This document shows, in pieces, positions 17,333 to 58,245 of a stretch of 64,000 nucleotides of DNA. The notes under the pieces were generated by a model, which searched no databases, was not told the DNA's origin, and saw nothing but the letters and a program-made list of their open reading frames with translations. The DNA is from an uncultured Thermodesulfobacteriota bacterium (GTDB lineage Bacteria; Desulfobacterota; GWC2-55-46; JADFVP01): the NCBI GenBank assembly GCA_964407495.1, contig CAYOVP010000005.1, positions 905 through 64,904 on the forward strand. Direction: 5' to 3'. The position numbers and the translations under genes are program-made. Position 1 is the stretch's first letter. Every line of letters begins with the position of its first letter.

Positions 17333-17375
17333 GGTTTTCTTTGTCTTACTTTCTTTTTTCCAAAAGAAAGTAAGG
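17333..17375 (+). repeat. Intergenic palindromic repeat, copy 1 (family consensus ggttttctttg-yc-yyactttctttttyccaaaagaaagtrrg)
   Basis: 'ggttttctttgtcttactttcttttttccaaaagaaagtaagg' contains the inverted repeat actttctttt/aaaagaaagt. Near-identical copy at 58203-58245. Confidence 0.8.
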
Positions 17376-17549
17376 TGTTTTTTCTGTCATTTTTTCCCTC
17401 TTCTCTTCTCTCTCCTGCCAGAGAGGGTCTTTCTTCCGTCATTACCTTTCATCCGGCAGGTTTGCAGGGCCGCACCCTCTGTGTTAAACTTCAGGGGTAA
17501 CCTCGGAACACAGTACTGGCCCAGGGAGGGCCTTGGCAGAGATCATCAT

Positions 17550-18596
17550 ATGAGAGAGACCAAGAGAGCAAAGACGAGGCCTGGCCCCATATTCATCTTG
17601 AGGGGGCTCAAGAGGCTCTATGACTCCAAGGCCCTATACGCCCAACTCGCCGTAACAGACGACTGTAACCTCTCGTGTTCATACTGTAACGAATTCACTC
17701 CCGGGGCAAGTCCTCCCGCCCTTTCAGACCTCAAGGCCCGTGTCGACCGTCTCTCGGCACTCGGTGTCATGGTCTTCGATCTCCTCGGCGGAGAGCCCCT
17801 TCTGCACCCCGATATCCTCGAAGTCATCGGCTACATCAAGGCGCCGGGACGCAGAGCAACCATTGTAACCCTCATTACCAATGGTTTTCTCCTGAGCGAA
17901 GACATGGTTAAGGGGCTCAACGACTCTGGCCTCGACATGATGCAGATAAGCGTCGACTCCGCGCATCCCACGGCGCAGTCCGAAAAGTCTCTGAAGTCGC
18001 TCCTGCCGCGCATGAAGATGCTCGCAAGAACGGCCCGGTTCAAGGTAAAGGTCCAGTCTGTTCTAACAAAAGAGACTGCGCGCGAATACGGTGAGTTCAG
18101 GAGGCTCCTGAAGGGGCTTCCCTTTGACTTTGGTTTCTCTCTGCTCCACAGGCCTGGCGGCGGCGTGGCGATAAAGGGAGAAGAGTTCGTCCGACTCCTG
18201 CGCGATGAGAATCTCTTTGCCGGCATGAACCTCTACCGCAGGCACGCCGAGGAGGCCCTGCTGGGAGATTTCTCCAGGCCCTGGAAGTGTCTTGGGGGGA
18301 GCAAATTTCTCTATGTGAACACCCGGGGCGAGGTCCAGTACTGCAGTCAGAACAGGGAGTTCAGGCGGCCCCTCGAAGACTTCGGAAGTAATGACGTCAG
18401 GGCCAACAGGAGACACAAGTCCTGCGAGGCAGGCTGTGTGCTCGGTTGCGCCAGGCTCATCTCCCATGCCCTCGGCGAGCCGGTGCGGACCATGCAGACG
18501 AGTATCGCGCTTCTAACCGGCATAAGGCGGGCCGGGGCAGAGGCAGTACGAGACCAGGGACCACCTCACAGCGCAAGAGGGCCGCGGCCCAGTTAG
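17550..18596 (+). CDS. Radical SAM protein with C-terminal SPASM/twitch-like Cys cluster
   Basis: 'CNLSCSYC' radical SAM motif and C-terminal 'C..G......G.V..C ... CEAGCVLGC'. Start placed at an internal ATG. The ORF track N-terminus (from 17241) runs through the repeat and is not credible. Confidence 0.65.
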   Translation: MRETKRAKTRPGPIFILRGLKRLYDSKALYAQLAVTDDCNLSCSYCNEFTPGASPPALSDLKARVDRLSALGVMVFDLLGGEPLLHPDILEVIGYIKAPGRRATIVTLITNGFLLSEDMVKGLNDSGLDMMQISVDSAHPTAQSEKSLKSLLPRMKMLARTARFKVKVQSVLTKETAREYGEFRRLLKGLPFDFGFSLLHRPGGGVAIKGEEFVRLLRDENLFAGMNLYRRHAEEALLGDFSRPWKCLGGSKFLYVNTRGEVQYCSQNREFRRPLEDFGSNDVRANRRHKSCEAGCVLGCARLISHALGEPVRTMQTSIALLTGIRRAGAEAVRDQGPPHSARGPRPS

Positions 18597-18607
18597 ACGC
18601 TCGAAAA

Positions 18608-19597
18608 ATGACCACCCTTGTTACAGGCGCAACGGGTTTTGTGGGATCTGCAGTGGTGCGGGCCCTTCTCAATAGGGGCCGGGCCGTACGGGTACTTGTG
18701 CGCCCTGAGAGCAACAGGCGCAACATCGTTGGCCTCGACGTAGAGGTCGTTACCGGCGACCTTACCAAGAGGGCCTCGCTCGTCCGCGCCATGAGGGGAT
18801 GCGTGGCCTTGTACCACGTTGCCGCAGACTACCGCCTCTGGGTGCCAAGGCCCGAGGAGATGTACGAGGCCAACGAGGCCGGCACGAGGCGGATCATGGA
18901 GGCCGCGCTCGAGGCAGGCATCGAGCAGATAGTATACACAAGTAGCGTAGCGACACTCGGGCTCCGCGCCGACGGCAGGCCTGCCGACGAAGACACGCCA
19001 TCTAGCCTAAAAGACATGATCGGCCACTACAAGAGGAGCAAATTCCTTGCAGAGCAAGAGGTCAAGAAACTCATAAGAGAAGAAGGCCTCCGGGCAGTCA
19101 TCGTCAACCCCTCTACGCCCGTTGGCCCTCGCGATGTGAAGCCCACACCCACGGGACGGCTCATAGTCAATGCCCTTGCAGGCAAGATGCCTGCCTACGT
19201 AGACACGGGCCTGAATATCGTGCACGTGGACGACGTTGCCGAGGGGCATGTCCTCGCCATGGAGCGGGGAAGAATTGGCCAACGGTACATACTCGGGGGA
19301 GAGAACCTCACTCTCTCGGAGATACTCGAACGCCTTGCCACGATAGGAGGGAGAAAACCCCCGCGCATCCGCCTGCCCCACGGCCTCGTAATGCCCCTTG
19401 CCCATGTATCAGAGGCCTGGGCAAGGCTCACAGGCGCCAAGAACCCCATGCTTACGAAAGACGGGGTAAAGATGGCCAGAAAACACATGTTCTTCACGAG
19501 CAGAAAGGCCATGGAAGAACTGGACTACCGCCCAAGACCCGCCATAGAGGCGCTCCGCGATGCCGCGAGATGGTTCAGAGAGAATAACTATGCCTGA
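18608..19597 (+). CDS. hpnA: NAD-dependent epimerase/dehydratase, HpnA-like
   Basis: Rossmann 'LVTGATGFVGSAV' at the N-terminus and SDR-extended-family length. Sits inside the hpn locus. Confidence 0.75.
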   Translation: MTTLVTGATGFVGSAVVRALLNRGRAVRVLVRPESNRRNIVGLDVEVVTGDLTKRASLVRAMRGCVALYHVAADYRLWVPRPEEMYEANEAGTRRIMEAALEAGIEQIVYTSSVATLGLRADGRPADEDTPSSLKDMIGHYKRSKFLAEQEVKKLIREEGLRAVIVNPSTPVGPRDVKPTPTGRLIVNALAGKMPAYVDTGLNIVHVDDVAEGHVLAMERGRIGQRYILGGENLTLSEILERLATIGGRKPPRIRLPHGLVMPLAHVSEAWARLTGAKNPMLTKDGVKMARKHMFFTSRKAMEELDYRPRPAIEALRDAARWFRENNYA

Positions 19598-19680
19598 TGG
19601 GACTTGTTTCTGCTATAATTATGAGATATGGTCAGTAGGAGGAAAGAGCAAGGCCCTGGTTTGGCACCATGAAAGACCTT

Positions 19681-19722
19681 CCCCTTTCTTTTAGAAAAAA
19701 GAAAGGGGAGCAAAGAAAAACC
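19681..19722 (-). repeat. Intergenic palindromic repeat, copy 2 (reverse orientation)
   Basis: 'cccctttcttttagaaaaaagaaaggggagcaaagaaaaacc' carries the same arm/tail structure. Upstream of ispH. Confidence 0.7.
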
Positions 19723-19795
19723 AGTTTTTGCCTATTAATCCAGGAACGAAAAACACAGGGCAAAACCCGCGTCTCCATAGAGAGGACAACCTGGC

Positions 19796-20710
19796 ATGAA
19801 ACTTCTTCTTGCAGAACCAAGGGGCTTCTGCGCAGGCGTAGAACGCGCTGTACTTACTGTGGAGAGGGCTCTCGAGAAGTACGGGGCTCCCATATACGTA
19901 CGCCATGAGATAGTGCACAACCGCCACGTGGTGGACAGTCTAAAGAACAAGGGAGTAATCTTTGTAGACGAACTCGACGAGGTCCCGGACGGCTCGGTGG
20001 TCATATTCAGCGCCCACGGCGTGTCAAGGAAAGTCAAGGCAGAGGGTCAGAGACGCGACCTCATCGTGATAGACGCCACCTGTCCTCTTGTGACAAAGGT
20101 GCACAGGGAGGCGCGGAGAAACGCCAGTGAGGGCCGCGAGCAGATACTCATCGGCCACGCAGGCCACCCCGAGGTGGTGGGGACGATGGGGCAGGTGGAT
20201 GGCCCCATGCACCTCGTCTCCTCGCCAGAGGACGTGGAGGCACTGGAGATAAAAAACCCGGACAACGTATCATACGTGACACAGACCACGCTCAGCATGG
20301 ACGACATGGCCGACATAGTGGCGGCGCTAAAGAAACGCTTCAGGAACATCCGGGGCCCCATGCGAGAGAACATATGCTATGCGACTCAGAACCGCCAGAA
20401 CGCCGTCAAGGCAGTGATAAAAAAGGTAGACCTACTTATAGTCGTAGGGGCCAGGAACAGTTCGAATTCCAACCGCCTCCGTGAACTGGGCGCAAGGTAC
20501 GGCGTACCATCCTACCTCGTGAGTACAGCAACTGACATAAGAGAGGAATGGCTCAATGGGGCCAGGAGGGTGGCCATTACAGCAGGGGCCTCGGCGCCCG
20601 AACTCCTCGTAAAGGAAGTCATCGAGTACCTGAAGGCCAGGTCTGGCGGCCTTACAATCGAGGACATAAAGGTAACGGACGAGAACGTGAAGTTCAGCCT
20701 CCCCATATAG
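19796..20710 (+). CDS. ispH: 4-hydroxy-3-methylbut-2-enyl diphosphate reductase
   Basis: '[14 protein letters not shown]', '[10 protein letters not shown]' and conserved Cys of IspH/LytB. An ispH copy is a frequent member of hpn clusters. Confidence 0.85.
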
Positions 20711-20741
20711 CCCGATACGGCAGAAGGGATAGAGGTAAGGC

Positions 20742-21806
20742 ATGGGTGTACCGCTCATACAACAGGTCCGCATAGGGGCCTATATCATGACGAGGAGCCT
20801 CAGGAGGGAGAAGCGCTTCCCCCTCGTCCTCATGCTTGAACCCCTCTTTCAATGCAACCTCGCCTGCGCAGGTTGCGGAAAGATAGACTACCCGCCCGAG
20901 ATCCTCAAGAAGAGACTCTCTGTGGAGGAATGTGTAGATGCGGCCCTTGAGTGCGGGGCGCCGGTAGTATCCATACCAGGCGGAGAGCCCCTCATACACC
21001 CGGAGATAGGCAGGATAGTACGGGGCCTTACGGGGCTGAAGAAGTTCGTATACCTCTGTACAAACGCCCTTCTTCTGAAGCGCAAGATGGACCTCTTCGA
21101 ACCAAGCCCCTACCTCACCTTCAGCATACACCTCGACGGCCTCGAGGAACGCCACGACAGCCTCGTGTCCTGCGAAGGGGTCTTCGAGAGCGCCGTGGAG
21201 GCCATAAGACTTGCCAAGAAACGGGGCTTTCGCGTTACCACCAACACCACCATTTACGGGAACGAATCGCCTGAAGAGGCAGTACGTCTCTTCGAGTTCA
21301 TCTCCGGCCTCGGCGTAGAGGGCATGACCTTGTCACCAGCCTTTCACTACGGCAACGCAAGAGAAAAGAAAGATTTTCTCGGACGGGAGGAGGCCGTGCT
21401 CATCATGAGGAGACTTATCAGGGAGGGCGCGATCCGGGGTTGGAAGTTCAATCACAGCACTCTCTTCCTCGACTTCCTCGCAGGCAACCAGGACTACCGT
21501 TGCTCCCCCTGGGGCAATCCCACGCGCAATATCTTCGGCTGGCAGATGCCCTGTTATCTCCTCAACGAGGGATACGCATCTTCTTACAGGGAACTCATGG
21601 AGAAGACGGACTGGGAGGCCTATGGCTATGACAGGAACGCCAAGTGCGCAGACTGCATGGTACACTGCGGGTATGAGCCAACGGCTGTCATGGACACACT
21701 TCGCCACCCCCTGAAGGCCCTCGTGGCCAAGTTGGGAGGCGTGGACCGAAAGGGGGCAGAGAGGCCACGCCCCGTAAAGACCATTCCGCCCCAGGAGACA
21801 ACCTAA
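20742..21806 (+). CDS. hpnH: Adenosylhopane synthase (radical SAM) HpnH
   Basis: 'EPLFQCNLACAGCGKI' radical SAM motif and C-terminal 'CADCMVHCGYE' (DUF3463-like), as in HpnH. Confidence 0.85.
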   Translation: MGVPLIQQVRIGAYIMTRSLRREKRFPLVLMLEPLFQCNLACAGCGKIDYPPEILKKRLSVEECVDAALECGAPVVSIPGGEPLIHPEIGRIVRGLTGLKKFVYLCTNALLLKRKMDLFEPSPYLTFSIHLDGLEERHDSLVSCEGVFESAVEAIRLAKKRGFRVTTNTTIYGNESPEEAVRLFEFISGLGVEGMTLSPAFHYGNAREKKDFLGREEAVLIMRRLIREGAIRGWKFNHSTLFLDFLAGNQDYRCSPWGNPTRNIFGWQMPCYLLNEGYASSYRELMEKTDWEAYGYDRNAKCADCMVHCGYEPTAVMDTLRHPLKALVAKLGGVDRKGAERPRPVKTIPPQETT

Positions 21807-21846
21807 CCCCACCTACCCTTAGCACCCCCAGACAACCTGGTCGCCG

Positions 21847-22389
21847 CTAAAACCCTATGGCAAGAGTAAGGAGGATCTCGTCCTCTCCAGGGTTCTTGTC
21901 GTGCACATTGGCATTGGATAGGTGGCCAAGGCGGAGCCCGACCCTCATGCGTTCCAAGACCTGGTAGTCGAAGTTGAGGGCAAGGCGGAATGTAAAGACA
22001 CCGCCGAGGTTTCTGCTCGACCCCTTGTGATACCCGCCCATGGCCGCAACAGGCGTAAGAACGAAGTCTCCATACAAGAGGTCTGCGTAAAAGCCGGCAT
22101 ACCCGTAGAACGCGCCGTCTGTGTTTGCAAGGATACCTATGAGGGGACCCACGAAGTAGTACTTCTTTCCAAAACGCAGTTCCCCGTTGAGTTCGCCCGC
22201 GCCGTCTCCATCGTCCACATTGTGAAAAGAAAAGGCACCTGCCCCAATATCTGCGTAATTGTACGAATCCCCTGCAACACTGAAGTTGCCAGATGAATAG
22301 AAGGGCGTCTGCCTGCCACCGGCAAGGGCCGTAGAAGCGGCAAAGAGGAGGAAGAAAAAGAGAATGCCTCTTGTGAGAAAAATGCGCAC
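21847..22389 (-). CDS. Outer-membrane beta-barrel protein, PagL-like acyloxyacyl hydrolase family
   Basis: Signal peptide, alternating-hydrophobic beta-strands, 'HLSNA' His/Ser region and a C-terminal aromatic residue. Confidence 0.5.
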   Translation of the reverse strand: MRIFLTRGILFFFLLFAASTALAGGRQTPFYSSGNFSVAGDSYNYADIGAGAFSFHNVDDGDGAGELNGELRFGKKYYFVGPLIGILANTDGAFYGYAGFYADLLYGDFVLTPVAAMGGYHKGSSRNLGGVFTFRLALNFDYQVLERMRVGLRLGHLSNANVHDKNPGEDEILLTLAIGF

Positions 22390-22652
22390 CTATTTCTCCT
22401 TTGTAGTAAAGACAAGGAAGGCAGAAAAAAACCGCTTAGTAAAAAAAGGAAAATACTTAAGGGAATCGCGTTACAGCGGCCCTGATCCGTAAAAGAGGCC
22501 GTTTCTCAGGGCCCAAGGCAAGGTGCAGCAAAAAAATCGCTTCTGGAAAGACGGTGAGACTATAACACTTGATGAGCGAGATGTAAAGCAGTGGACTGAG
22601 GACTCGAAAGGATTTGAGGCAAGAAAGCCTGGCCAGCAGACCCCTCTTACCC

Positions 22653-23438
22653 TCACTGGCCCTGCGCTCCACTGCCAGGGACGAGTGCAGAAAAAAAACC
22701 CTCGTCCACGAGGGCGCGCCAGGCGCGGCCCAGGGAAGATGTTGCCGAGTCAAAGGACTTCTTGAGATGCACCATCTCCTTCAGAAGGGAGGGCCGCTTC
22801 AGACATCTGCCAAGAAGTCTGCCTGTCATCAGACCACCCTCATCGTCCAGGCAGTCGTAAAGGTCTTCAGATATGCCTTGCTCTGCCGTGTCGCAGACAG
22901 CGCGCATCACAAGAAAGGGCACGCCCTCTCTTGCCGCCAGAGCGGCCACGGCCCCGCTCTCCATGTCAACGGCAAGGGCCCCGCTCTCCCGGAAGAGCCT
23001 GGCCTTGGCCCCTGCAGTGAGTACGGCCCCCGTGGTGCTCACCAGAGGGCCACGCGTAAAAACCACCCCCGCCCTCTTCAGCGCACCTGCCGCAAGGTCG
23101 AGTAAGTCCTTCCGGGCGGCATGGAAACCGCCCCCCCCTTCAAGTATGACCCCTCCGGCGAGAACCACGTCCCCTGAACCGAGTCCTGGTGAGAGGGCAC
23201 CGGAGACGCCAAGACTGAGGAGCAACTCCGCCCCCTCATCAAGGGCCAAGGCCGTTGCCACGGTGGCCCGCTCCATGCCCACGCCAGAGAGCACTGCTAT
23301 GAGTTCACTTACACCAAGGCTCGTCCTCGCCACGGTTGGCCCGCCCTTGCTGGTGCCGCCGCCTGAGGCCTCCCACCTTACGCGGCCAAGCACTGCACGT
23401 GCCTCGGCCCTGAGCGCCAATACGAGACCAACCCTCAC
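22653..23438 (-). CDS. hpnG: PNP/MTA-nucleosidase-family hopanoid-associated phosphorylase HpnG-like
   Basis: PNP_UDP fold motifs ('GVGMERA', 'AVDMESGA'). Directly downstream of shc with a 4-nt overlap. Confidence 0.7.
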   Translation of the reverse strand: MRVGLVLALRAEARAVLGRVRWEASGGGTSKGGPTVARTSLGVSELIAVLSGVGMERATVATALALDEGAELLLSLGVSGALSPGLGSGDVVLAGGVILEGGGGFHAARKDLLDLAAGALKRAGVVFTRGPLVSTTGAVLTAGAKARLFRESGALAVDMESGAVAALAAREGVPFLVMRAVCDTAEQGISEDLYDCLDDEGGLMTGRLLGRCLKRPSLLKEMVHLKKSFDSATSSLGRAWRALVDEGFFSALVPGSGAQGQ

Positions 23439-25507
23439 AGCCCGAGTCTCTTGATGACCGGAATGGTCCAGTCTGGTGGGCGCTCGAGAGATACCTCGTC
23501 CTGGCGGGTCTTTCCTGCATCCTTGAGCCGCCTGTACATGCCAAGGGCCCAGAGAGGAAAGTACAGCCTGTAGCCATGGTACTTGAGATAGAAGACGCGG
23601 GGAAAGCCAGTGCCTGTATAGAATCTCTCATCCCAGGTTCCATCTGGCTTCTGGGTCTGAAGGAGATACTCGATACCCCGCCTCACGGCCTCATCGTCAT
23701 GACCCGCAACGGCCATAAGCCCCATGACGGCCCATGCGGTCTGGGATGGAGTACTCGGGCCCATGCCTGCAAGGCGCGCGTCGTCATAACTCCGGCAGGT
23801 CTCGCCCCACCCGCCGTCGTCGTTCTGGCGCGAGCGAAGCCACGCCGCGGCCTTCTGTATGTAGGGCTGTCCCATCTCCTCACCTGCCCGCTTAAGGCCA
23901 GCCAAGACGGACCACGTGCCGTATATGTAATTTACGCCCCATCTTCCGAACCATGCGCCGCACTCTTCCTGCTCGGCCCGGAGAAACTCGATGGCACGGG
24001 CTACAGGCGGAAAATCGCGCCTGTAGCCCAGCATGGCGAGGACCTCTACACACCGGCCCGTAACGTCAGAGGTGCTGGGGTCGAGGAGCGCACCGTGGTC
24101 GGCAAAGGGGATATCATTCAGGTAGGTGTAGTTGTTGTCGATATCAAATGCGCCCCAGCCGCCGTCCGAACTCTGCATGCCTATTATCCAGTTTACGGCC
24201 CTTGCTATGGGTTCCCTGTATTCTTTCTTCTCCATGGCGCCTGCACGTAGAAGAGACATCACCACCATGGCCGTGTCGTCAGTGTCGGGATAGAAGTCAT
24301 TCTCGTACTGAAAGGCCCAGCCACCAGGCTCCAGATCAGGGGCATTCACAGACCAGTCGCCCCTTACGAATATCTGGTGCTCGAGGAGCCACTTCACGGC
24401 CTTCCCGGCCCTCTCCTCCAAGCCCTCTCCGCCTGCCTCGGCCATGGCCGAGAGAGATAGACAGGTGTCCCAGACCGGAGAGAAACAGGGCTGGCAGAAC
24501 CCCTCGTCGCCGTGCTCCACGAGAAGGTCGTCGAGGGCCTTCATGCCATGGACCATATCAGGGTGGTCCTTGCTGTACCCCAGTACGCTCAGGGCGATGA
24601 GGCAGTTCACCATTGGAGGGAATATGGCCCCTATGCCGCCCTCGCCTCGCATGCGCTCCAAGATGAAACGCTCGGCAAGTGCGGTGGCCCGGTCCTGCCA
24701 GAGTCTCGATATGATGGGATCGAGTCTCTTTATGATACGGTCCACGAGTATGAAGAAGTTCTTGCGCGGCCTGCCGGTGACAAACTTGTCTATGTGGCCG
24801 ATCTTGTCCGGAGGTGATACGAAGAGTTCATAGAGACACTCCTCGGGTCTGAGCGTACAGACCGTCCGGCGGGAGCAGAAGACGAGGAGCGTGACTATCA
24901 CGGTGCGCGACCAGTATGAGACCTTGTCGATATGAAAGGGAAACCAGCGCGGCAGGAGCATTATCTGCACGGGTATGGCGGGTACGGTGCGCCAGGGTAT
25001 CTGACCGTAAAGGGCAAGGAGTATGCGCGTAAAGACATTGACTCGTGCGGCCCCGCCCAGGCTGAGTATGAGTTGCCTTGCGCGGACCATGTGGGGTTCG
25101 TCCGGCGAGTCGCCAGAGAGTTTCAAGGCAAAGTAGGCCTTCACAGTGGCGCTTATGTCCGAGAACCCGCCCTCATAGAGCGGCCAGCCTCCATCGGCAA
25201 GTTGCCCCCGCCGTATGTAGCGCGTGAGGCGTTCCTTCAGGGCCGGATCCATCTCGCGTTCGAGGAAACGCTGGAGTATTATGTACTCGGCGGGGATGGT
25301 GACGTCGGCCTCGAGGTCGAATACCCAGTTTCCAGCCTCCGCCTGCAACCCGCCAAGGGCCCTGAAGGCCCTCTCTGCAGACTCTTCGAGCCCAGGGTAG
25401 GCCCCCAGCCGGTCCTCGACGCGCCGAGCCGCCGGGCCGGCTACCCTGAGCCTCCCTCTCGACCTCTTCATCATGCCAAAGACCTTCTTCTCCTTCATCT
25501 CGCTCAT
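23435..25507 (-). CDS. shc: Squalene-hopene cyclase
   Basis: Catalytic 'DTDDTAMV' (DxDD) motif and multiple QW motifs ('GGWG'). Start placed at an internal ATG with a plausible RBS. The ORF track extends to 25684. Confidence 0.9.
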   Translation of the reverse strand: MSEMKEKKVFGMMKRSRGRLRVAGPAARRVEDRLGAYPGLEESAERAFRALGGLQAEAGNWVFDLEADVTIPAEYIILQRFLEREMDPALKERLTRYIRRGQLADGGWPLYEGGFSDISATVKAYFALKLSGDSPDEPHMVRARQLILSLGGAARVNVFTRILLALYGQIPWRTVPAIPVQIMLLPRWFPFHIDKVSYWSRTVIVTLLVFCSRRTVCTLRPEECLYELFVSPPDKIGHIDKFVTGRPRKNFFILVDRIIKRLDPIISRLWQDRATALAERFILERMRGEGGIGAIFPPMVNCLIALSVLGYSKDHPDMVHGMKALDDLLVEHGDEGFCQPCFSPVWDTCLSLSAMAEAGGEGLEERAGKAVKWLLEHQIFVRGDWSVNAPDLEPGGWAFQYENDFYPDTDDTAMVVMSLLRAGAMEKKEYREPIARAVNWIIGMQSSDGGWGAFDIDNNYTYLNDIPFADHGALLDPSTSDVTGRCVEVLAMLGYRRDFPPVARAIEFLRAEQEECGAWFGRWGVNYIYGTWSVLAGLKRAGEEMGQPYIQKAAAWLRSRQNDDGGWGETCRSYDDARLAGMGPSTPSQTAWAVMGLMAVAGHDDEAVRRGIEYLLQTQKPDGTWDERFYTGTGFPRVFYLKYHGYRLYFPLWALGMYRRLKDAGKTRQDEVSLERPPDWTIPVIKRLGL

Positions 25508-49379: not shown

Positions 49380-49511
49380 GATAAAATTCTACTTTTTTAG
49401 GGGATATAAGTCAATTCCTACTTTTACGCTCAAAGTGTCTTCTTGACATTGCATACCATGCTGGTAAATTAGAAGTACGCACAAAAAAAGAAAGCAGGGC
49501 AAAGAAAACCT

Positions 49512-49553
49512 CCCACTGTCTTTTGGGAAAAAGAAAGTGGGGCAAAGAAAACC
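49512..49553 (-). repeat. Intergenic palindromic repeat, copy 3 (reverse), with an adjacent partial copy at 49486-49510
   Basis: 'cactgtcttttgggaaaaagaaagtggggcaaagaaaacc', preceded by the partial 'aagaaagcagggcaaagaaaacc'. Confidence 0.7.
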
Positions 49554-49994: not shown

Positions 49995-50015
49995 CCAGCG
50001 GCCCCTGGCCGCTGG
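49995..50015 (+). terminator. Terminator hairpin after ssb
   Basis: 'ccagcggcccctggccgctgg' preceded by 'gcggtttttt' and followed by 'cattggtttt'. Confidence 0.5.
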
Positions 50016-50019
50016 CATT

Positions 50020-50064
50020 GGTTTTATTTGCCCCACTTTCTTTTTCCCAAAAGAAAGTGGAAGG
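50020..50064 (+). repeat. Intergenic palindromic repeat, copy 4
   Basis: 'ggttttatttgccccactttctttttcccaaaagaaagtggaagg'. Confidence 0.75.
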
Positions 50065-50114
50065 TTTTCGGTATGCGGCCTATGGCCGCTTCTTTCGCTT
50101 TTGTGTCTTTGGTC

Positions 50115-51335: not shown

Positions 51336-51364
51336 TTGACAACGGCCAGGCACGCTCCTACAAT
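51336..51364 (+). promoter_or_regulatory. Sigma70-type promoter for the FmdB-like gene
   Basis: TTGACA, 17-nt spacer, TACAAT, then an AAGGAGG RBS upstream of the ATG at 51407. Confidence 0.55.
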
Positions 51365-51406
51365 AGAGTTAGAGATCATAGCCATAAATGAAGGAGGTCT
51401 TTTTTT

Positions 51407-51676
51407 ATGCCCATATACGAGTACAGGTGTCCTGACTGCGAGAAGGTCTTCGAGGTCATACAGAAGTTCAAGGACGATGCAATAACCAAGTGCCGCTACT
51501 GTTCAGGCACGAACGTGGAGAAACTCATCTCGCGCTCCAGTTTTGTGCTCAAGGGCAGCGGGTGGTACAAGACTGATTATGCCCGCAAGACATCCTCTAC
51601 GCCGCAGACCTCGTCCACCTCGGACTCCGCGCCCCCGTCGTGCGCTGGTTGTCCTTCGGCCAAGAAGGCGCAATGA
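51407..51676 (+). CDS. FmdB-family zinc-ribbon protein
   Basis: 'MPIYEYRCPDCEKVFE' plus a second CxxC pair ('KCRYCSG'). 89 aa. Confidence 0.7.
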   Translation: MPIYEYRCPDCEKVFEVIQKFKDDAITKCRYCSGTNVEKLISRSSFVLKGSGWYKTDYARKTSSTPQTSSTSDSAPPSCAGCPSAKKAQ

Positions 51677-51726
51677 ACCTCTGCGAGTTTGCCATTCCTA
51701 CTCCTTCGAGCCAGAGGCGGACCTGA

Positions 51727-52527
51727 ATGGAAATCCGTAAGGTTGCAATAGAGGCGGCCCTCGAGGCCGGCGCCCTCCTCAAGGGCCGTCTTGGTCATGC
51801 CGGCAGGGTTGACTTCAAGGGCGAGGTGGACATTGTCACGGAGATGGACCGAAGGTCCGAGGGACTCATCGTGGAGAGGATCAGGCGCGAGTTCCCGGGC
51901 CACGGCATCATTGCCGAGGAGAGTGACGAGCGCAAGGCAGCGAGCGGATACCGATGGATAATCGACCCCCTTGACGGCACCACCAACTACTCGCACGGCT
52001 TTCCCGTCTTCTGCGTCTCCATTGGTTTCGAGGCAGAGGGCGAGGTTATCCTCGGTGTTGTGTACAACCCCATGCTCGACGAACTCTTTGTGGCCGAGAA
52101 GGGGCGCGGTGCTCTCTTGAACAACGCACCGATCTCAGTATCGAGGACGGCCTCCCTCGGACGCAGCCTCCTTGCCACGGGTTTTCCCTATGATCTTCGC
52201 ACTGCCAGTGCAAACAACTTCGACCTCTTCAGGAACTTCTCTCTCCGGGCCCAGGCCATAAGGCGTGCCGGCTCGGCGGCTCTCGATCTCTGCTATGTGG
52301 CCTCTGGCCGCTTCGACGGGTTCTGGGAGATGAAACTCTCGGCCTGGGACACTGCCGCAGGCACGCTCATGGTGACCGAGGCCGGGGGTCGTGTCACGGA
52401 TTTTGACGGAGGCCTGTACTCCAACTTCAAGCCCCGGTGTCTGGCCTCGAACGGTCTCATCCACGAAGAGATGATGGAGGTCCTTGGTACTGGGCGCTGG
52501 TGCTCTGTTCGCAAAGGGGACGGCTGA
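51727..52527 (+). CDS. suhB: Inositol monophosphatase family protein (SuhB/IMPase)
   Basis: 'WIIDPLDGTTNY' and 'WDTAAG' motifs. Confidence 0.85.
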   Translation: MEIRKVAIEAALEAGALLKGRLGHAGRVDFKGEVDIVTEMDRRSEGLIVERIRREFPGHGIIAEESDERKAASGYRWIIDPLDGTTNYSHGFPVFCVSIGFEAEGEVILGVVYNPMLDELFVAEKGRGALLNNAPISVSRTASLGRSLLATGFPYDLRTASANNFDLFRNFSLRAQAIRRAGSAALDLCYVASGRFDGFWEMKLSAWDTAAGTLMVTEAGGRVTDFDGGLYSNFKPRCLASNGLIHEEMMEVLGTGRWCSVRKGDG

Positions 52528-52588
52528 GTACCACGGACCCCGAGGCAGTAAAGGACGCGGTGTTTGCGTGGATACGGGGATATAACAA

Positions 52589-52692
52589 CAATTGCATATA
52601 TGACGAATTGTTTTCTGAACAATCTCCATAAAAGGTACATTCCGCGACCTTTTTCGCGAGAAGGCGCAACGTTCGTTTGCATATATAACGAA
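52589..52692 (+). promoter_or_regulatory. AT-rich island with two copies of a 15-mer, each inside a short palindrome
   Basis: 'CAATTgcatatatgacgAATTG' (52589-52610) and 'TTCGTTtgcatatatAACGAA' (52672-52692). The 15-mer core is tgcatatat[g/a]acgaa. Upstream of the holin-like gene. Confidence 0.3.
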
Positions 52693-52825
52693 ATAGTAAT
52701 AATAAAAGGTACTTACGTCCAGGTTCTTACCCCTAAACGGTAAGGAGTTGCCTCAAATGACCATGTTTTACTTCTCAAGGCGAATCCGCGTCTTCAGGGA
52801 TTCATACCCAGAAAAGGACGGACTA

Positions 52826-53164
52826 ATGAAAAACCTCGTACTCCGCCTTGCCATACTCGCAGTAGGCATAGCCCTTGCCGTGTACATCGTGCCTGGCATG
52901 GAATCCGTCGGATACGGCCCTGTCATAGAGGCGGCCATTGTCCTCGGCGTCCTTAACCTCGTCATAAAGCCCGTCCTCTTCATCCTCACCCTGCCCATCA
53001 ATATCCTGAGCCTCGGGCTCTTCACCTTCATACTCAACGGCATACTCCTGCTCATCGTGGGCGCGCTCGTGCCTGGCCTCGATGTGCAGGGCCTTGGAGT
53101 GGCCATACTCGGCTCCATAGTCATAAGCCTCTTCAGCATGGTGGCGGGCTGGCTCGTAAAGTAA
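52826..53164 (+). CDS. Small 4-TM membrane protein, phage-holin-4-like family
   Basis: 112 aa with four hydrophobic helices. AGGACGG RBS. Confidence 0.5.
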   Translation: MKNLVLRLAILAVGIALAVYIVPGMESVGYGPVIEAAIVLGVLNLVIKPVLFILTLPINILSLGLFTFILNGILLLIVGALVPGLDVQGLGVAILGSIVISLFSMVAGWLVK

Positions 53165-53223
53165 GAGGCAGGAGAAAGAAAGGGAAAGGAAAGAAGCAGC
53201 ACTCGAATGCATATTGAGATATT

Positions 53224-53264
53224 GCGCTTTCTTTTGGGAAAAAGAAAGTGCCCAAAGAAAAACC
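53224..53264 (-). repeat. Intergenic palindromic repeat, copy 5 (reverse)
   Basis: 'gcgctttcttttgggaaaaagaaagtgcccaaagaaaaacc'. Confidence 0.75.
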
Positions 53265-53358
53265 GGTTCCATCGGCCCTTCGGGCCGGTGGAGGGTTCGC
53301 AGGCGTTGATAACCGCGAGCCTGTAAGACTATCATTCAATCAAGAAAAGGAGGGTTCC

Positions 53359-53877
53359 ATGGGGGCGTCTGGTCCGGGGCCGGAGAGAACAAAAATACTG
53401 AATTCAGAACTTGCCGATTCGGCCATAGGTGGCGACACGAAGAGAGTGGAGGAACTTCTCGCCGAGGGCGCTGACGTAGACGCTAAAAACGATTACGGAC
53501 TTACGCCCCTTATATTCGCCTCCATACAGGGCCATCCCGATGTTGTGGCGGTTCTCCTCGAGAGAGGCGCCGAAGTTAACGTCAACTCCCCGGAAGGGAT
53601 CACCCCTCTCATAGCCGCCTCAGCGGGCGGCCACCTGAGCGTAGTCAGGCAACTTCTCGACAAGGGCGCTGACGTGAACGCAAGAGCTCAGGGGGGCGTG
53701 ACGGCGCTTATCTTCGCCTCTGGCGGAGGGCACTCCAAGGTGGTGGAGGCGCTCCTTGAAAAAGGCGCCGACGTGAACGCCGAGACAAAGACAGGCGAGA
53801 CTGCCCTGGTCTTCGCATCAAGAGGGGTACACTCCGGAACAGTGGCGCTCCTCAAGAAACACGGGGCCTCTGAATAG
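53359..53877 (+). CDS. Ankyrin-repeat protein
   Basis: Four to five ANK units ('G.TPLI.AS..GH..VV..LL..GADVN'). AAGGAGGG RBS. Confidence 0.75.
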   Translation: MGASGPGPERTKILNSELADSAIGGDTKRVEELLAEGADVDAKNDYGLTPLIFASIQGHPDVVAVLLERGAEVNVNSPEGITPLIAASAGGHLSVVRQLLDKGADVNARAQGGVTALIFASGGGHSKVVEALLEKGADVNAETKTGETALVFASRGVHSGTVALLKKHGASE

Positions 53878-53940
53878 GCTGGCCTGCGGTAGTCAAAGGG
53901 CCTTGCCCCGCTCTGTACCCGGTGTGGAACGAGACCCGGC

Positions 53941-54318
53941 TCAGCCGCTGTAATGGGCGTATACGCGGGCTATCTTGCCGCGCTCATCGAGATACATGAA
54001 CTCGCCTGCCCGCACGTTGTTCTGGTTGGTATAAAAGAGCACGATGCTCCTCAGTCCGCACATTACATCCTGCAGTCGAAACTCGAGGTCCGGGTAGGCC
54101 TCGAGCCCCTTCTGAAAGTACTCCCTCAGGGCCTCCATGCCCCTCACCTCCCCGTTACCGAGAAGCCTCTCTGCTATGGGCGAAATAAGGACCACTGACT
54201 CGGAGTAATGAGATAAGATTTTTTCGATATCATGTGCGTTCCAGGCCTCGGTCCAGTCTTTCGCAAACTTCAGGGCGTCATCTCTTGAGAGCACCTCTCT
54301 AAGTCCTCCTTCTGGCAT
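53941..54318 (-). CDS. NTF2/SnoaL-like small protein
   Basis: Alpha+beta cone-like pattern with 'WNAHDIEKILSHYSESVVL'. The ORF track start (54408) is a TTG and the first ATG is used here. Confidence 0.4.
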   Translation of the reverse strand: MPEGGLREVLSRDDALKFAKDWTEAWNAHDIEKILSHYSESVVLISPIAERLLGNGEVRGMEALREYFQKGLEAYPDLEFRLQDVMCGLRSIVLFYTNQNNVRAGEFMYLDERGKIARVYAHYSG

Positions 54319-54460
54319 TGAATAGAGAAAAGCCTCTCTTAAGCGTTGCTCCGCAAGGCCCCGTGGCCTTGCGTTGGCCTGCCCCAGATTGGCGCCAGGG
54401 CCTGGCAAACGCCACCGATCATGTCCCCACCCGTAGACTGCTCGCCCTCGCCCTCCCCCC

Positions 54461-55828
54461 TCAGGCGCTCTCTATGAATATGAGGTTCGGGTCTTCGAGG
54501 TACTCCTTTACACGCTTGAGAAAGGTCGAGGCCTCTACTCCGTCCACCACCCTGTGGTCAAAGGTGAGCGAGAGGGGGAGTATCATGCGCGGCACCACCT
54601 TGCCTTCAAATATCCATGGCCGCTCGGTAATACGGCCCGTGCCGAGTATGGCTATGTCCGGGTAGTTGATTATGGGGGTGGCGTATCTCCCGCCAAAGGC
54701 GCCGTAGTTGGTTATGGTGAAGGTAGAGCCCTTGAGTTCACCAAGGGTTATCTTTCGCTCGCGGGCCCTTTTGCTCAGTTCCTGGAGTTCCTCTGCTATC
54801 TCCAGTATGGTCTTCTTCTCCACATCGCGCAAGACCGCCACCATGAGCCCATCGGGCGTATCCACTGCAACGCCAACATTGAAATATTTCTTGATGATTA
54901 TCTCTCCGCGCTCCTCGTCCACAGAGCCGTTGAGGAGCGGATGGCTCTCTATGGCATGGCGCACGGCCTTCATGAAAAAGGGAAGAAAGGTAAGGTTGAT
55001 GCCCTTTTTGGCGGCAGCCTCTTTCTCGTGGTTACGGAGGTTCCAGAGGTCTGTCACGTCGGCGTCGTCCATGCCCGTTACAGAGGCCGTGTTCCTCTGC
55101 GAGGCCATGAGGTTACGCGAGATGCTCTTTCTTATGCCGCGAAATGGGATGCGCTCCACAGGGCCCCAGGGGTCGCGGTCTTCGCCCGCGGGCGGCGGTG
55201 CGGGTGGTGCGTGGTGCGGCGCCGGTGGCGGTGGAGGCGCATGGTGAGGCAGGGGTGGAACCGGCCTTGCCCCCTGCGGTGGAACGGCGGCTTTCCCAGG
55301 GGCAGGCGCCCCTCCGGCGGCCAGCACATCGGCCTCGGTGATGATGCCGCCCGGGCCCGTGCCCGTAATCTTGGAGATATCAATACCCCTCTCCCGTGCC
55401 AGGGCCCGCGCCTTTGGCGCGGCGAGGACACCTATTGAGGGGGGCAACTTACCGACAACAGATGCAGCCTCTTCTTCCTCTTCATCCTCATGGGCGGGCG
55501 CGGCCTTCGGGGCCGGCGCAGTCGGCGCTTCAACTCTCGACTCCGGTCTGGCGGCCGCCTCCTCTGCCACGGCGCCCTCGGCCTCTTCACCGCCCGTCTC
55601 TATGGTAAGAAGGACCTCGCCAACGAGAACGGTATCGCCCTCTGCCTTGTTGAGTTTCAGAACCTTACCCTTCTTTGGCGAGGGGACCTCTACAATGGCC
55701 TTGTCCGTCTCCACCTCGAGGATCACCTGGTGCTCCTCCACAAGGTCGCCCTCACGAACATGCCACTTTACGACCTCGCCCTCCTTTATGCCCTCGCCAA
55801 GGTCAGGTAACTTGAAATCAAAAGGCAT
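54461..55828 (-). CDS. Dihydrolipoamide acyltransferase (E2) of a 2-oxoacid dehydrogenase complex
   Basis: Lipoyl domain 'ETDKAIVEVPSP', Pro/Ala-rich linkers, E3-binding domain, catalytic 'DHRVVDG'. AAGGAGG RBS. Confidence 0.9.
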   Translation of the reverse strand: MPFDFKLPDLGEGIKEGEVVKWHVREGDLVEEHQVILEVETDKAIVEVPSPKKGKVLKLNKAEGDTVLVGEVLLTIETGGEEAEGAVAEEAAARPESRVEAPTAPAPKAAPAHEDEEEEEAASVVGKLPPSIGVLAAPKARALARERGIDISKITGTGPGGIITEADVLAAGGAPAPGKAAVPPQGARPVPPLPHHAPPPPPAPHHAPPAPPPAGEDRDPWGPVERIPFRGIRKSISRNLMASQRNTASVTGMDDADVTDLWNLRNHEKEAAAKKGINLTFLPFFMKAVRHAIESHPLLNGSVDEERGEIIIKKYFNVGVAVDTPDGLMVAVLRDVEKKTILEIAEELQELSKRARERKITLGELKGSTFTITNYGAFGGRYATPIINYPDIAILGTGRITERPWIFEGKVVPRMILPLSLTFDHRVVDGVEASTFLKRVKEYLEDPNLIFIESA

Positions 55829-55873
55829 GAGAGACCTCCTTATTTGAAAGAAAGAAGAAAAAAACAAAAGATT

Positions 55874-55916
55874 TCCTTACTTTCTTTTGGAAAAAAGAAA
55901 GTAAGACAAAGAAAAC
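55874..55916 (-). repeat. Intergenic palindromic repeat, copy 6 (reverse)
   Basis: 'ccttactttcttttggaaaaaagaaagtaagacaaagaaaacc'. Confidence 0.75.
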
Positions 55917-55938
55917 CAATAATTAGAAGTTGATCTTT

Positions 55939-55963
55939 TCCAAGCCGCGCGAAGCGCGGCTTG
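55939..55963. other. Perfect 10-bp-stem hairpin between two convergent repeat copies
   Basis: 'ccaagccgcg cgaag cgcggcttgg' between E1beta and E2. Confidence 0.6.
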
Positions 55964-55967
55964 GCAT

Positions 55968-56006
55968 CAGTTTTCTTTGCCAGGCTTTCTTTTTCAAAAG
56001 AAAGCC
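55968..56006 (+). repeat. Intergenic palindromic repeat, copy 7
   Basis: 'agttttctttgccaggctttctttttcaaaagaaagccg'. Confidence 0.65.
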
Positions 56007-56028
56007 GAAATTATCCTATTAATTTCTC

Positions 56029-56994
56029 TCAGTACTTCATTACCTCTTCGAGGGCACTGCGTATTCTCTCTACCCCTGGCATGTACTCGTCCTCGAGTCT
56101 TGCCATGGGCATTACGGCCTCAGGTCCGGCCACCCTAACAACAGGGGCCTTCAGAGAGAAGATCGCCTCCTCGGAGACAAGGGCCGATATCTCGGCGCCG
56201 AGGCCGCAGTTCTTGGTGGCCTCGTGCACTATTACGAGGCGGCCTGTCTTGCGGACCGATTCAAGGATGGTCTCCTCGTCAAAGGGTTTCAGGGTCATGA
56301 GGTCTATTATCTCGGCGTCAAGGCCCTCTGCCGCGGCCATGGCCCTGTGCAGCATTGCGCCCCAGGCGACAACCGTCACTTCAGCCCCTTCCTGTAGAAC
56401 CGCGGCCTTCCCAAGGGGCACGGTGTACTCCTCTTCTGGCACGGGCGTCCTTATGGCGCGGTAGATGCTCGCAGGCTCCATGAAGAGCACGGGATCGTCG
56501 TCACGGATGGCCGAGATGAGAAGGCCCTTGGCATTGTATGGCGTGGATGGGACCACCACCTTGAGGCCGGGCATATGGCAATACACGGCCTCTGAGGACT
56601 CGCTGTGGAGTTCCGGGGCCTTTATGCCGATGCCGTAGGGTGTACGTATGACAAGGGGGCAGGTAAAGCGTCCGCGCGAGCGCGAGCGTATGCGTGTTGC
56701 ATGTGAGAAGATCTGCTCGAAGGCCCCGTAGGTAAAGCCCATGAACTGGATCTCTGCAACAGGCCTGAGGCCGTAGACAGCCATGCCAATGGCCGTACCA
56801 ACGATTGCGAGTTCGGCCAGCGGCGTATCCATGACGCGCTCTGGCCCGAATTTTTCAAGAAGGCCTTCTGTTGCGCGAAAGACCCCGCCGTCTACGCCCA
56901 CGTCCTCACCAAGGACCACGACGTTGGTGTTGCGCTCCATCTCCTCTGCAAGGGCCCGGTTCACGGCCTGTACTATGGTCAGTCCCTTTCCCAT
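56029..56994 (-). CDS. 2-oxoacid dehydrogenase E1 component beta subunit
   Basis: Transketolase-like pyrimidine-binding and C-terminal domains. 321 aa. Overlaps E1alpha by 16 nt. Confidence 0.9.
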   Translation of the reverse strand: MGKGLTIVQAVNRALAEEMERNTNVVVLGEDVGVDGGVFRATEGLLEKFGPERVMDTPLAELAIVGTAIGMAVYGLRPVAEIQFMGFTYGAFEQIFSHATRIRSRSRGRFTCPLVIRTPYGIGIKAPELHSESSEAVYCHMPGLKVVVPSTPYNAKGLLISAIRDDDPVLFMEPASIYRAIRTPVPEEEYTVPLGKAAVLQEGAEVTVVAWGAMLHRAMAAAEGLDAEIIDLMTLKPFDEETILESVRKTGRLVIVHEATKNCGLGAEISALVSEEAIFSLKAPVVRVAGPEAVMPMARLEDEYMPGVERIRSALEEVMKY

Positions 56995-58049
56995 CCCAGG
57001 GCCTTCAGTTCCTTTCTCTGTCTCCTGCTGAGTTCACTCGATGTATATCTGATGATCTCCGCCGGCTCTGGCGCTCCAAAGGCCTCGGCCTCTTCTACGG
57101 CAGACTTTATCTCGGCCTCCACCCCGGCCTTGATCTCCTTCTCAATCTCTTCTGTGAGGATGCCCCTCTGGCGGAGGAACTTCGTGTATCTCTTCAGGGG
57201 CTCCCGTGCCTCCCACTTCTTTACCTCTTCCTCTGTCCTGTAACGCGACGAGTCGTCGGCTGTGGTGTGGTCGTCGAGGCGGTAGGTATAGCACTCTATG
57301 AGAGTGGCGCCCATGCCTGCGCGGGCGCGCTCCACTGCCTCTGCTGTTGTCTTGTACACGGCAAGGACGTCGTTTCCGTCTACCTGTATACCAGGGATGC
57401 CGTAGCCCGCGGCCCTCTGCGCTATGGTCTCTGCGGCTGTCTGGCGAGAGCGCGGCAGGGAGATTGCCCACTGGTTGTTCTGGCAGATGAAGACCACCGG
57501 GGCCTTGAAGACACCGGCAAAGTTGAGGCCCTCGTGAAAGTCGCCCCTCGATGAGCCGCCGTCGCCAAAATAGGTGACTGCAACGCTTCTCTCACCCTTT
57601 ATCTTCATGGCCATTGCAGTGCCAACGGCATGGGTTATCTGGCTCCCCACGGGAACGCTCATGGGAAAGATGTTCTGCCCAGGGGGGGCCTTCATTCCCC
57701 GCTCGTCGCCCATCCAGTAACGGTACATGAGCCAGGCCGGGTATCCTCGCGTAAGGAAGACACCTGTCTCTCGAAAGGATGGGAAGATCCAATCTTCCTC
57801 TGAGAGGGCCAGGGCCGAGCCTGTCTCGCTGGCCTCCTGGCCAAGTATAGAGGCATAGGTGCCTATGCGTCCCTCTCGCTGTAGGTCCAGGGCCATGTGG
57901 TTGAAGGCCCGTGAAAAGACCATGGCCCTGTACGCGCGAAGGAGGTCCTCGTCGGAGAGGGGCGGGAGAAGGGCCTCGTCGAGAGCCCCTGTCTCGTCTA
58001 ATACCTGGAGATAATCCACCCCAAAGGTCTTTAATGTTTTTTCAGGCAT
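56979..58049 (-). CDS. 2-oxoacid dehydrogenase E1 component alpha subunit (TPP-dependent)
   Basis: TPP-binding motif 'YFGDGGSSRGDFHEGLNFAGV' and phosphorylation-loop-like 'YRLDDHTTADD'. Confidence 0.85.
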   Translation of the reverse strand: MPEKTLKTFGVDYLQVLDETGALDEALLPPLSDEDLLRAYRAMVFSRAFNHMALDLQREGRIGTYASILGQEASETGSALALSEEDWIFPSFRETGVFLTRGYPAWLMYRYWMGDERGMKAPPGQNIFPMSVPVGSQITHAVGTAMAMKIKGERSVAVTYFGDGGSSRGDFHEGLNFAGVFKAPVVFICQNNQWAISLPRSRQTAAETIAQRAAGYGIPGIQVDGNDVLAVYKTTAEAVERARAGMGATLIECYTYRLDDHTTADDSSRYRTEEEVKKWEAREPLKRYTKFLRQRGILTEEIEKEIKAGVEAEIKSAVEEAEAFGAPEPAEIIRYTSSELSRRQRKELKALGWERD

Positions 58050-58202
58050 GTGGAGAGTTTAGCATTGCTTTGCAAGGGCGTCAAGCAGGGCCGGAAGCAC
58101 ATCCTTCTATTTTTTCTTTGACTTGCTCTCGGCTTCCGAGGCAGGGAGTCACTTGCTGGGGAAGGGCCTGCCAGGGGCGTACTTGGACTGCAAAGAGAAT
58201 CA

Positions 58203-58245
58203 GGTTTTCTTTGTCTTACTCTCTTTTTTCCAAAAGAAAGTAAGG
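58203..58245 (+). repeat. Intergenic palindromic repeat, copy 8
   Basis: 'ggttttctttgtcttactctcttttttccaaaagaaagtaagg', upstream of mfd. Confidence 0.8.

Follow-up and report, generated by a model that had tools for sequence, protein, structure and literature searches.

A dispersed A/T-rich repeat with the layout of an intrastrand triplex motif in an uncultured Thermodesulfobacteriota bacterium

The DNA analysed here, referred to as the window, is a stretch of 64,000 nucleotides (positions 905 to 64,904 of contig CAYOVP010000005.1, assembly GCA_964407495.1) from an uncultured Thermodesulfobacteriota bacterium, and it also lies within a 127-kb JGI metagenome contig. Its genes include a hopanoid and Mla cluster, ssb, a ubiU-like U32 gene, pdhABC-like genes and mfd. 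Between these genes lies a short repeat of 39-45 nt, present as eight full copies and one partial copy with the consensus GG-TTTTCTTTG-NNNNN-CTTTCTTTT-(2-4 nt)-AAAAGAAAG-N'N'N'N'N', where TTTTCTTTG is the head, CTTTCTTTT the pyrimidine arm and AAAAGAAAG the purine arm. An earlier note on this DNA had described a dispersed palindromic family, and the copies are found at the coordinates it gave (Table 1).

A strict search for the hairpin gave three matches in the window against 0.00 in 100 shuffled sequences, and allowing one mismatch in each arm recovered all eight full copies and no other site. A generic search for the head, the pyrimidine arm and the purine arm (8-mers, at most one mismatch, both strands) returned exactly the same eight sites, compared with 0.05 ± 0.22 in 40 dinucleotide shuffles. 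Where '+' denotes a copy with its head, GGTTTTCTTTG, on the left and '-' the opposite, four full copies are '+' and four are '-', as is the partial copy; the presence of both orientations had been proposed. Nearest-neighbour folding, which models the hairpin only, leaves the head unpaired and turns the inverted repeat into a real hairpin of 12-14 bp with a folding energy of -10 to -19 kcal/mol. Likeness among the window copies is confined to the 43-nt unit, so they are not parts of larger duplicated segments, the finding that would have overturned the earlier proposal. The family also extends beyond the window, with two more copies on the same contig and others in relatives. Every window copy is intergenic under the JGI gene calls, again as proposed. 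The start of one ankyrin-repeat gene (53248-53877) differs between two samples (53248 or 53359), and only the earlier of these starts overlaps a copy, that at 53224-53264.

The hairpin of the earlier note holds, and its head is no accessory box. The head TTTTCTTT repeats the 5' arm CTTTCTTTT in exact mirror order, being neither its reverse complement nor a direct copy of it. Its direction is consequently that of the purine arm AAAAGAAAG, each T facing an A and each C a G, as the rule for a pyrimidine-motif triplex demands. On the opposite strand the purine-motif rule applies, with A over A-T and G over G-C in antiparallel orientation. Four classes of intrastrand triplex motif have been distinguished, after Hoyne and Maher (2000), and such motifs are abundant in prokaryotes (Holder et al., 2015, PMC4666352). 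The T-rich strand, which reads Hoogsteen strand TTTTCTTT, then G, pyrimidine arm CTTTCTTTT, loop and purine arm AAAAGAAAG, corresponds to class IV (T.A-T and C+.G-C triads), and the complementary strand, which reads pyrimidine arm, purine arm and mirror purine tail, corresponds to class II (A.A-T and G.G-C triads).

As all window copies share one sequence, the window is a single instance of the mirror rule, and independent instances were therefore sought elsewhere. A scan for the hairpin alone, with one genome per species, gave at least 119 loci, and the results for foreign loci given here are among the matches listed. These include Bacillota, Bacteroidota, Nitrospirota, Proteobacteria, Thermodesulfobacteriota, candidate phyla and archaea, and in about two thirds of them a head that matches TTTCTTTG, one mismatch being allowed, stands 3-5 nt 5' of the hairpin. 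Other arms are accompanied by other heads. At locus L014 the arm is CTTTCTTTCTCTCTCTTTTTT and the head TTTTTTCTCTCTCTTTCTTTG, a mirror over 20 of 21 nt, and at L115 the arm CTTTTTCTTCTTTTC has the head CTTTTCTTCTTTTTG (14 of 15 nt); mirror heads on further pyrimidine arms occur at L074, L029, L070, L022, L071, L034 and L112. Among the matches listed, 12 of 36 non-canonical hairpins have an exact mirror head, compared with 1.35 expected from shuffled heads, and three of the 36 have a direct-repeat head.

Viral contigs show the same dependence of head on arm. Beside arm CTTTCTTTT the head is TTTTCTTT in 22 cases and TTTCTTTT in two, and beside arm CTTTTCTTT it is TTTTCTTT in four and TTTCTTTT in 10, so that T4CT3 and T3CT4 heads follow A4GA3 and A3GA4 arms respectively. 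A G stands directly 3' of the head in 28 of 33 of these cases. This preference for mirror over direct-repeat heads (22 against two, 10 against four) led to the rejection of a Watson-Crick switch in which the head would pair with the purine arm in the manner of an attenuator; such pairing would favour direct repeats and is impossible at L014 and L115. The idea that the A4GA3 core is uniquely common was also dropped, as other hairpins of the same composition are equally common in viral contigs. One bin labelled as a giant virus (IMG/VR GVMAG-M-3300023184-110, 24-30% GC) holds at least 14 canonical modules with the outer stem CTC/AG, tandem 44-nt units among them (L131, L132, L134, L137, L139, L140, L146, L147, L149, L150).

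The segment between head and arm, which the earlier note gave as a variable 2-6 nt, is present; it in fact forms the 5' side of a 4-5 bp outer stem, which extends the hairpin and is maintained by compensatory changes. Over the first three positions of this stem, 85 copies contain 224 Watson-Crick cells, compared with 106 ± 7 when partners are permuted. In 29 aligned copies of this lineage the inner 9 bp are invariant, while the four outer pairs alternate between C-G, U-A, G-C and A-U; both sides have changed in 39 cells, compared with 18.9 ± 4.1 in shuffles, none of 500 of which reached the observed value. Controls in which the alignment was slid fall to half. Assigning a strand from the outer-stem mismatches was attempted and abandoned, as G.T (G.U in RNA) and A.C show no asymmetry.

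Pairing also extends to the 5' side of the head, where the adjacent bases complement the hairpin loop (mean best run 2.81 compared with 2.12 ± 0.09). This complementarity reaches at least 4 bp in 17 of 63 copies, with CTTGAA/TTCAAG and GGCTGC/GCAGCC as examples from related Bacteroidota, and none was seen in two downstream control regions. In the lineage of the window it is the flanking GG that pairs with CC in the loop, in 95% of cells and with 11 G.U pairs in the forward sense. A fully formed pseudoknot was considered and set aside, as simultaneous formation of all the pairs appears sterically unlikely on either strand.

Distances to gene ends were taken from crude open reading frame (ORF) calls over all head-bearing copies and from JGI calls in the window; the crude calls erred in GC-rich loci (e.g. 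window position 19684), and key cases were checked by Pfam. The hairpin side lies within 30 nt of a gene 3' end in 23 of 57 cases and of a gene 5' end in six of 42, and the head side lies within 30 nt of a gene 3' end in four of 46. Nine of 10 ORFs abutting the hairpin side were confirmed by Pfam. The stem base is often touched by a stop codon, a placement in which the hairpin precedes the purine tail on the mRNA strand, and some copies directly follow tRNA genes. Proximity to start codons, which had been pointed out for several copies, is also found: copies lie upstream of the radical-SAM gene by 106 nt, of ispH by 74 nt and of the U32 gene by 9-51 nt, with the distances for ssb and mfd in Table 1. 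A riboswitch-like link to a common downstream gene family was discarded because the neighbouring genes are unrelated. Relative to transcription, the copies at 17333, 50020 and 55874 and one past the window end are forward, those at 19681, 53224 and 55968 and the other one past the window end are reverse complement, and those at 49486/49512 and 58203 lie in divergent intergenic regions.

Other structures accompany the repeat. In 21 of 122 copies the head is closely preceded by a strong GC hairpin, compared with five of 122 in a downstream control. The gap between the two is 0-3 nt in several phyla, the canonical shape of a terminator, and 5-10 nt in this lineage, and the sequences of these GC hairpins are all different. 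Examples that lie 5-10 nt 5' of heads are at 49995-50015, 55940-55964 and about 53272-53290, and at 16533-16550 and 16630-16655 of the contig beyond the window (L124). A scan with the terminator consensus marked 49995-50015 and 55940-55964 as terminator-like and also called the 55874 hairpin itself. The element's own stem is A/U-rich and is followed by a T run in some copies, all of them from this lineage; in the reverse-complement sense an A-rich tail follows the stem. Since some GC hairpin-head units oppose both neighbouring genes (55968, the L124 copy at 16490-16526 '-' and L049), they are not obviously gene terminators. Inverted pairs of copies with a GC hairpin between them occur at 55874/55968 and at L124 16490/16659, and also at L070, between two tRNA genes. 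In Psychromonas the Rfam TwoAYGGAY RNA ends exactly at the head. Psychromonas sp. SA13A has two such RNAs (RF01731, 58-62 bits; L023 6101-6262 and 7775-7936, '-'), one of which is then followed by a full triplex module, and the other by a module in which unrelated sequence replaces the pyrimidine arm.

Table 1. Copies of the repeat, parts of the exemplar copy and associated features (window positions unless another locus is named)
Feature	Position	Strand	Remarks
Full copy (exemplar)	17333-17375	+	near-identical ortholog in relative L127
Exemplar, GG	17333-34	+	pairs with loop CC
Exemplar, head/third strand TTTTCTTTG	17335-43	+	
Exemplar, outer stem 5' half	17344-48	+	TCTTA
Exemplar, pyrimidine arm CTTTCTTTT	17349-57	+	
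Exemplar, loop	17358-61	+	TTCC
Exemplar, purine arm AAAAGAAAG	17362-70	+	
Exemplar, outer stem 3' half	17371-75	+	TAAGG
Full copy, hpnA/ispH intergenic	19681-19722	-	outer stem CTCCC/GGGG; reverse complement to both genes
Partial copy: head, linker and pyrimidine arm, without purine arm	49486-49510	-	pure mirror repeat, in tandem with the 49512 copy
Full copy, divergent plsC/ssb intergenic	49512-49553	-	purine arm AAAAGACAG (1 mismatch); 24 nt before ssb start
Full copy, between ssb and ubiU-like U32 gene	50020-50064	+	head TTTTATTTG (1 mismatch); GC hairpin 49995-50015 before it
Full copy, holin-like/ankyrin intergenic	53224-53264	-	outer stem GGGCA/(C)GC; reverse complement to both genes
Full copy, forward sense, 46 nt 5' of E2 (pdhC-like) start	55874-55916	-	left half of inverted pair
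GC hairpin between inverted-pair copies 55874 and 55968	55940-55964		
Full copy, 2-nt loop, 23 nt past E1-beta stop	55968-56006	+	right half of inverted pair; reverse complement to operon
Full copy, divergent pdhA/mfd intergenic	58203-58245	+	pyrimidine arm CTCTCTTTT (1 mismatch); 127 nt 5' of mfd
Remnant: purine arm AAAAGAAAG, AGCGC, head GGTTTTTCTTTC	9465-9500	-	without pyrimidine arm, without hairpin
Extra copy beyond window end, same contig	L124 16490-16526	-	
Extra copy beyond window end, same contig	L124 16659-16691	+	

The site at 9465-9500, put forward as a possible degenerate copy, does hold a purine arm and a head; lacking the pyrimidine arm, it is a remnant at best. Matches to sigma-70-like promoters at 49443-49470 (+), 49414-49386 (-) and 58084-58056 (-) would place the 49486/49512 copies within the 5' untranslated region (UTR) of ssb, in the reverse-complement sense, and -10 boxes about 7 nt before the plsC and pdhA starts suggest leaderless transcripts or very short leaders. 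Pure C/T tracts of 18-27 nt are found at 17390-17416 (+), 58294-58320 (+), 55846-55864 (-) and 53170-53196 (-), 10-50 nt downstream (forward sense) of four of the eight copies. These are four of 12 such tracts in the window and are mutually dissimilar in sequence; a fifth, at 19693-19710, lies within the copy at 19681-19722. The tracts near copies could be additional third-strand donors or U-rich 5' UTR elements.

The hopanoid cluster (about 10330-31000) contains genes for an MMPL/HpnN-like protein, a B12-rSAM and an rSAM protein, hpnA, ispH, an hpnH-like gene and squalene-hopene cyclase. Interspersed among them are genes for Mla lipid transport, PagL, and a pair formed by inositol-phosphate synthase and a CDP-alcohol transferase, and the cluster is syntenic in four relatives. 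The closest named relatives by IspH (74-75% identity) are labelled Thermodesulfobacteriota; in the four syntenic relatives (L127-L130) IspH is 75-87% identical. The 17333 copy is kept at the same site in L127, near-identical and with its outer stem, in flanking intergenic DNA that cannot be aligned, and at least this one copy is thus conserved far beyond the DNA around it. None of the four relatives has a copy at the 19681 site, where their intergenic gap is 20-98 nt compared with 198 nt in the window. In L127 three copies stand in tandem, with a period of 122 nt, at a position without a copy in the window; copies in L129 are at different sites, and no copies were found in the 13-21 kb of L128 and L130. 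A called gene of 151 aa in L127 (7208-7663), with no Pfam match, coincides with the three tandem 122-nt units and is probably a false call. The pattern of filled and empty sites among relatives indicates that the family has been gained and lost, as REP or BoxC elements are. Exact insertion boundaries could not be read from filled and empty orthologous sites, as the intergenic DNA is too diverged for alignment, and other samples contained a 100% identical strain and hence say nothing on presence or absence.

Hairpin, mirror strand, outer stem and loop-to-flank pairing are all constrained, and only a folded single strand uses all four. The repeat is read here, with moderate confidence, as a dispersed non-coding intrastrand triplex repeat of the PIT/BoxC structural class, with an A/T-rich instead of a G/C-rich sequence. 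In that class, the definition of a PIT asks for three consecutive blocks on the same strand, stem lengths of 6-15 nt with no more than one mismatch, and loops of 1-6 nt (PMC4666352). The repeat has blocks of 8-9 nt, a loop between the arms of 2-4 nt (2-6 elsewhere) and a spacer of G plus 4-5 nt between head and arm; its head is an exact mirror that tracks the arm sequence in independent data, and its eight sites exceed the shuffled expectation given above. It does not belong to the BoxC sequence family, its core being CTTTCTTTT/AAAAGAAAG. BoxC, also called PIT or TM_ECO, of E. coli is G/C-rich, with the form CCCTCNCCC-N3-6-GGGNGAGGG-N3-GGGNGAGGG (PMC4666352). TM_ECO is always intergenic and has no orientation bias, occurs at times in inverted pairs and is linked to local genome variability, and its isolated strand forms a triplex in vitro (PMC4666352).

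Where the element becomes single-stranded, in a transcript or in DNA opened by transcription or replication, the third strand would lock a stem made of A-U or A-T pairs plus two G-C pairs. The result would be an unusually stable stem-loop at gene boundaries, which beside stop codons or terminator hairpins may act as a barrier to decay or read-through, and the element could persist and spread as a semi-selfish repeat. E. coli REPs act as barriers of this kind. We tentatively regard the element as a dispersed repeat under structural constraint that works as a hairpin at the borders of genes. On the DNA side, both strands can in principle fold, one as class IV and the other as class II.

Several observations weigh against a triplex repeat with such a role. 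The barrier function itself is proposed with low confidence. Orientation is mixed, with four copies forward, four reverse complement and two divergent in this lineage's contig, and a split of 15 to 19 across phyla. Neither G.T nor A.C mismatches prevail in the outer stem (six against 10). The covarying outer stem leaves a single G to link the third strand to the stem base, which is plausible for A-form RNA and hard for B-DNA, where the linker appears too short for the geometry, and the loop-to-flank pairing uses up nucleotides needed to close a complete pseudoknot on either strand. In duplex DNA and in vivo footprints of E. coli, the TM_ECO triplex was not seen (PMC4666352). Triplex heads are, moreover, not general to pyrimidine/purine hairpins: in viral contigs, a third hairpin family of similar composition, CTTCTTTTT, has a mirror head in none of 105 cases. 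The absence of a head there implies in turn that the head is specific to the module and not a by-product of T-richness. This family, CTTCTTTTT-N2-6-AAAAAGAAG, is a separate multi-copy one, with up to five copies per viral contig (L314, L342, L370, L374, L376 and others).

The same fold may instead act as a cis RNA in the forward sense, which we consider unlikely. The U-rich head would lie in the major groove (U.A-U and C+.G-C triads) of an H-type pseudoknot with an extended triple helix, clamped 5' by the loop pairing and 3' by running into the outer stem, and would stabilise 5' UTRs or 3' ends or tune expression. Pyrimidine-motif triplexes do form in RNA and purine-motif ones do not (PMC4666352), the single-G connector, which could cross the deep groove of A-form RNA, and the loop-to-flank pairing match the geometry of pseudoknot loop 1, and the 11 G.U pairs between loop and flank would be A.C mismatches in the other sense. 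Several copies of the lineage also face the start of a downstream gene, and in Psychromonas the RNA that ends at the head means that forward transcripts reach it there. About half of the copies, however, are transcribed the opposite way round, and the most frequent arrangement has the reverse complement right after a stop codon; the outer stem has no G.U excess, a fully paired loop leaves no nucleotides to cross the short helix, and no Rfam family matches. A terminator part is an improbable reading, in which the head is the U-tract of an upstream GC hairpin, or the A/U hairpin with its T run terminates, or both. The enrichment of GC hairpins just 5' of the head, with the 0-3 nt gap in several phyla, the calls of the terminator scan and the copies that follow tRNA genes and stop codons all point that way. 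Against this stand the 5-10 nt between GC hairpin and T run in this lineage, the A-rich tail in place of a U-tract at the commonest post-stop placement, and the hairpin-head units that oppose both neighbours; the mirror rule is also left unexplained, and E. coli PIT elements lack promoter and terminator activity (PMC4666352).

Dispersed intergenic copies gained and lost between species, inverted pairs and tandem arrays are also what a mobile palindrome of the REP or miniature inverted-repeat transposable element (MITE) type would leave, and the invariant 9-bp core and conserved G suggest sequence-specific recognition. On this account head and arms would be the sites of a transposase (e.g. a RAYT-like Y1 enzyme) and the triplex potential incidental. 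One enzyme's site cannot explain a mirror rule that spans unrelated arms in many phyla, the outer stem is maintained through compensatory change, and we consider a mobile palindrome quite unlikely. The earlier note had called the family REP/MITE-like. The features of a MITE are missing: outside the 43-nt unit identity is lost, no cargo is enclosed by terminal inverted repeats, no target duplication is visible in the flanks, and the spacers of the inverted pairs are unrelated and variable. Membership in the REP family is not established; no Y1/RAYT or other partner transposase is found among the called genes of the regions read, the whole genome not having been searched. It is highly improbable that the three AAAGAAA boxes, two on one strand and one on the other, form an operator array bound as duplex by a regulator. 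The three 7-mers do have fixed spacing and lie near promoters; yet the neighbouring genes are unrelated, bacteria, archaea and viral contigs have the same architecture built from other sequences, and neither the compensatory outer stem nor the loop-to-flank pairing has a role in duplex binding.

If the repeat is an intrastrand triplex element, it belongs to a class that has reportedly been known in bacteria since 2000, from Hoyne and Maher. To our knowledge, only the G/C-rich E. coli family of these repeats has been studied, and the class has no assigned function. The A/T-rich family offers testable constraints in its mirror strand, compensatory outer stem, loop-flank pairing and placement at stop codons and terminators. 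Cultivated carriers (Acidovorax soli S00198, Gemmiger formicilis ATCC 27749 and Psychromonas sp. SA13A), together with simple oligonucleotides, would allow natural prokaryotic triple helices to be tested, and the label 'REP-like palindrome' may conceal a different structural logic. A broader and doubtful proposal concerns the T4CT3-G / CT3CT4 / A4GA3 module and its sister T3CT4 / CT4CT3 / A3GA4, which recur in bacteria, archaea and large-virus contigs. Both may be natural triple helices in which the outer stem and the loop-flank pairing each clamp one end of the third strand, and which in forward transcripts form a U.A-U/C+.G-C RNA pseudoknot that protects or marks ends. If true, bacteria would possess a widespread counterpart to the ENE/MALAT1-type stabilisers of eukaryotes and viruses, and the PIT/BoxC class would gain a function.

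The class itself is published, and the A/T-rich family and its two extra pairings are new in relation to the sources consulted: in the part of PMC4666352 available to us, neither the repeat sequence, the outer stem nor the loop-to-flank pairing is found, and A/T-rich motifs are there regarded as nearer to chance. In Rfam searches with gathering and permissive thresholds, no family matched the window or the motif of 17 foreign loci, and matches at E <= 10 were at chance level only. A 2026 review of RNA triple helices gives for prokaryotes only riboswitches and a group II intron.

Among known systems, the triplex pseudoknots of telomerase RNA, SAM-II, preQ1-II and ENE have, like the repeat, a U-rich strand that precedes a stem, can run parallel to the purines of that stem and is anchored by a second short helix. 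They are single-copy RNAs that bind a ligand or tail, whereas the repeat is multi-copy, occurs in both orientations and is known from sequence alone. The REP and BIME elements of enterobacteria and pseudomonads are likewise short, intergenic hairpins in both orientations, in pairs or mosaics with other hairpins, often right after stop codons and within operons; REPs, however, are plain imperfect palindromes tied to RAYT, and the unit described here needs a non-palindromic mirror head. As in H-DNA, head and pyrimidine arm mirror each other across a short spacer, and the partial copy at 49486-49510 is exactly such a mirror repeat. For H-DNA a mirror repeat suffices, whereas here the Watson-Crick partner is provided by a purine arm within the same strand, so that a single strand is enough for the fold. 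The closest likeness in layout is to PIT/BoxC of E. coli and other Proteobacteria, which has three blocks of about 9 nt in succession on one strand, namely a pyrimidine arm, a purine arm and a mirror third block, with short loops, tens of intergenic copies per genome without strand bias, inverted ('palindromic') pairs, and copy numbers that differ between close relatives. In contrast to BoxC, which is G/C-rich and discussed as a class II purine motif, the family in the window is A/T-rich (T4CT3 / CT3CT4 / A4GA3), its second 'loop' serves as the 5' side of an outer stem that covaries, and its hairpin loop pairs with the 5' flank.

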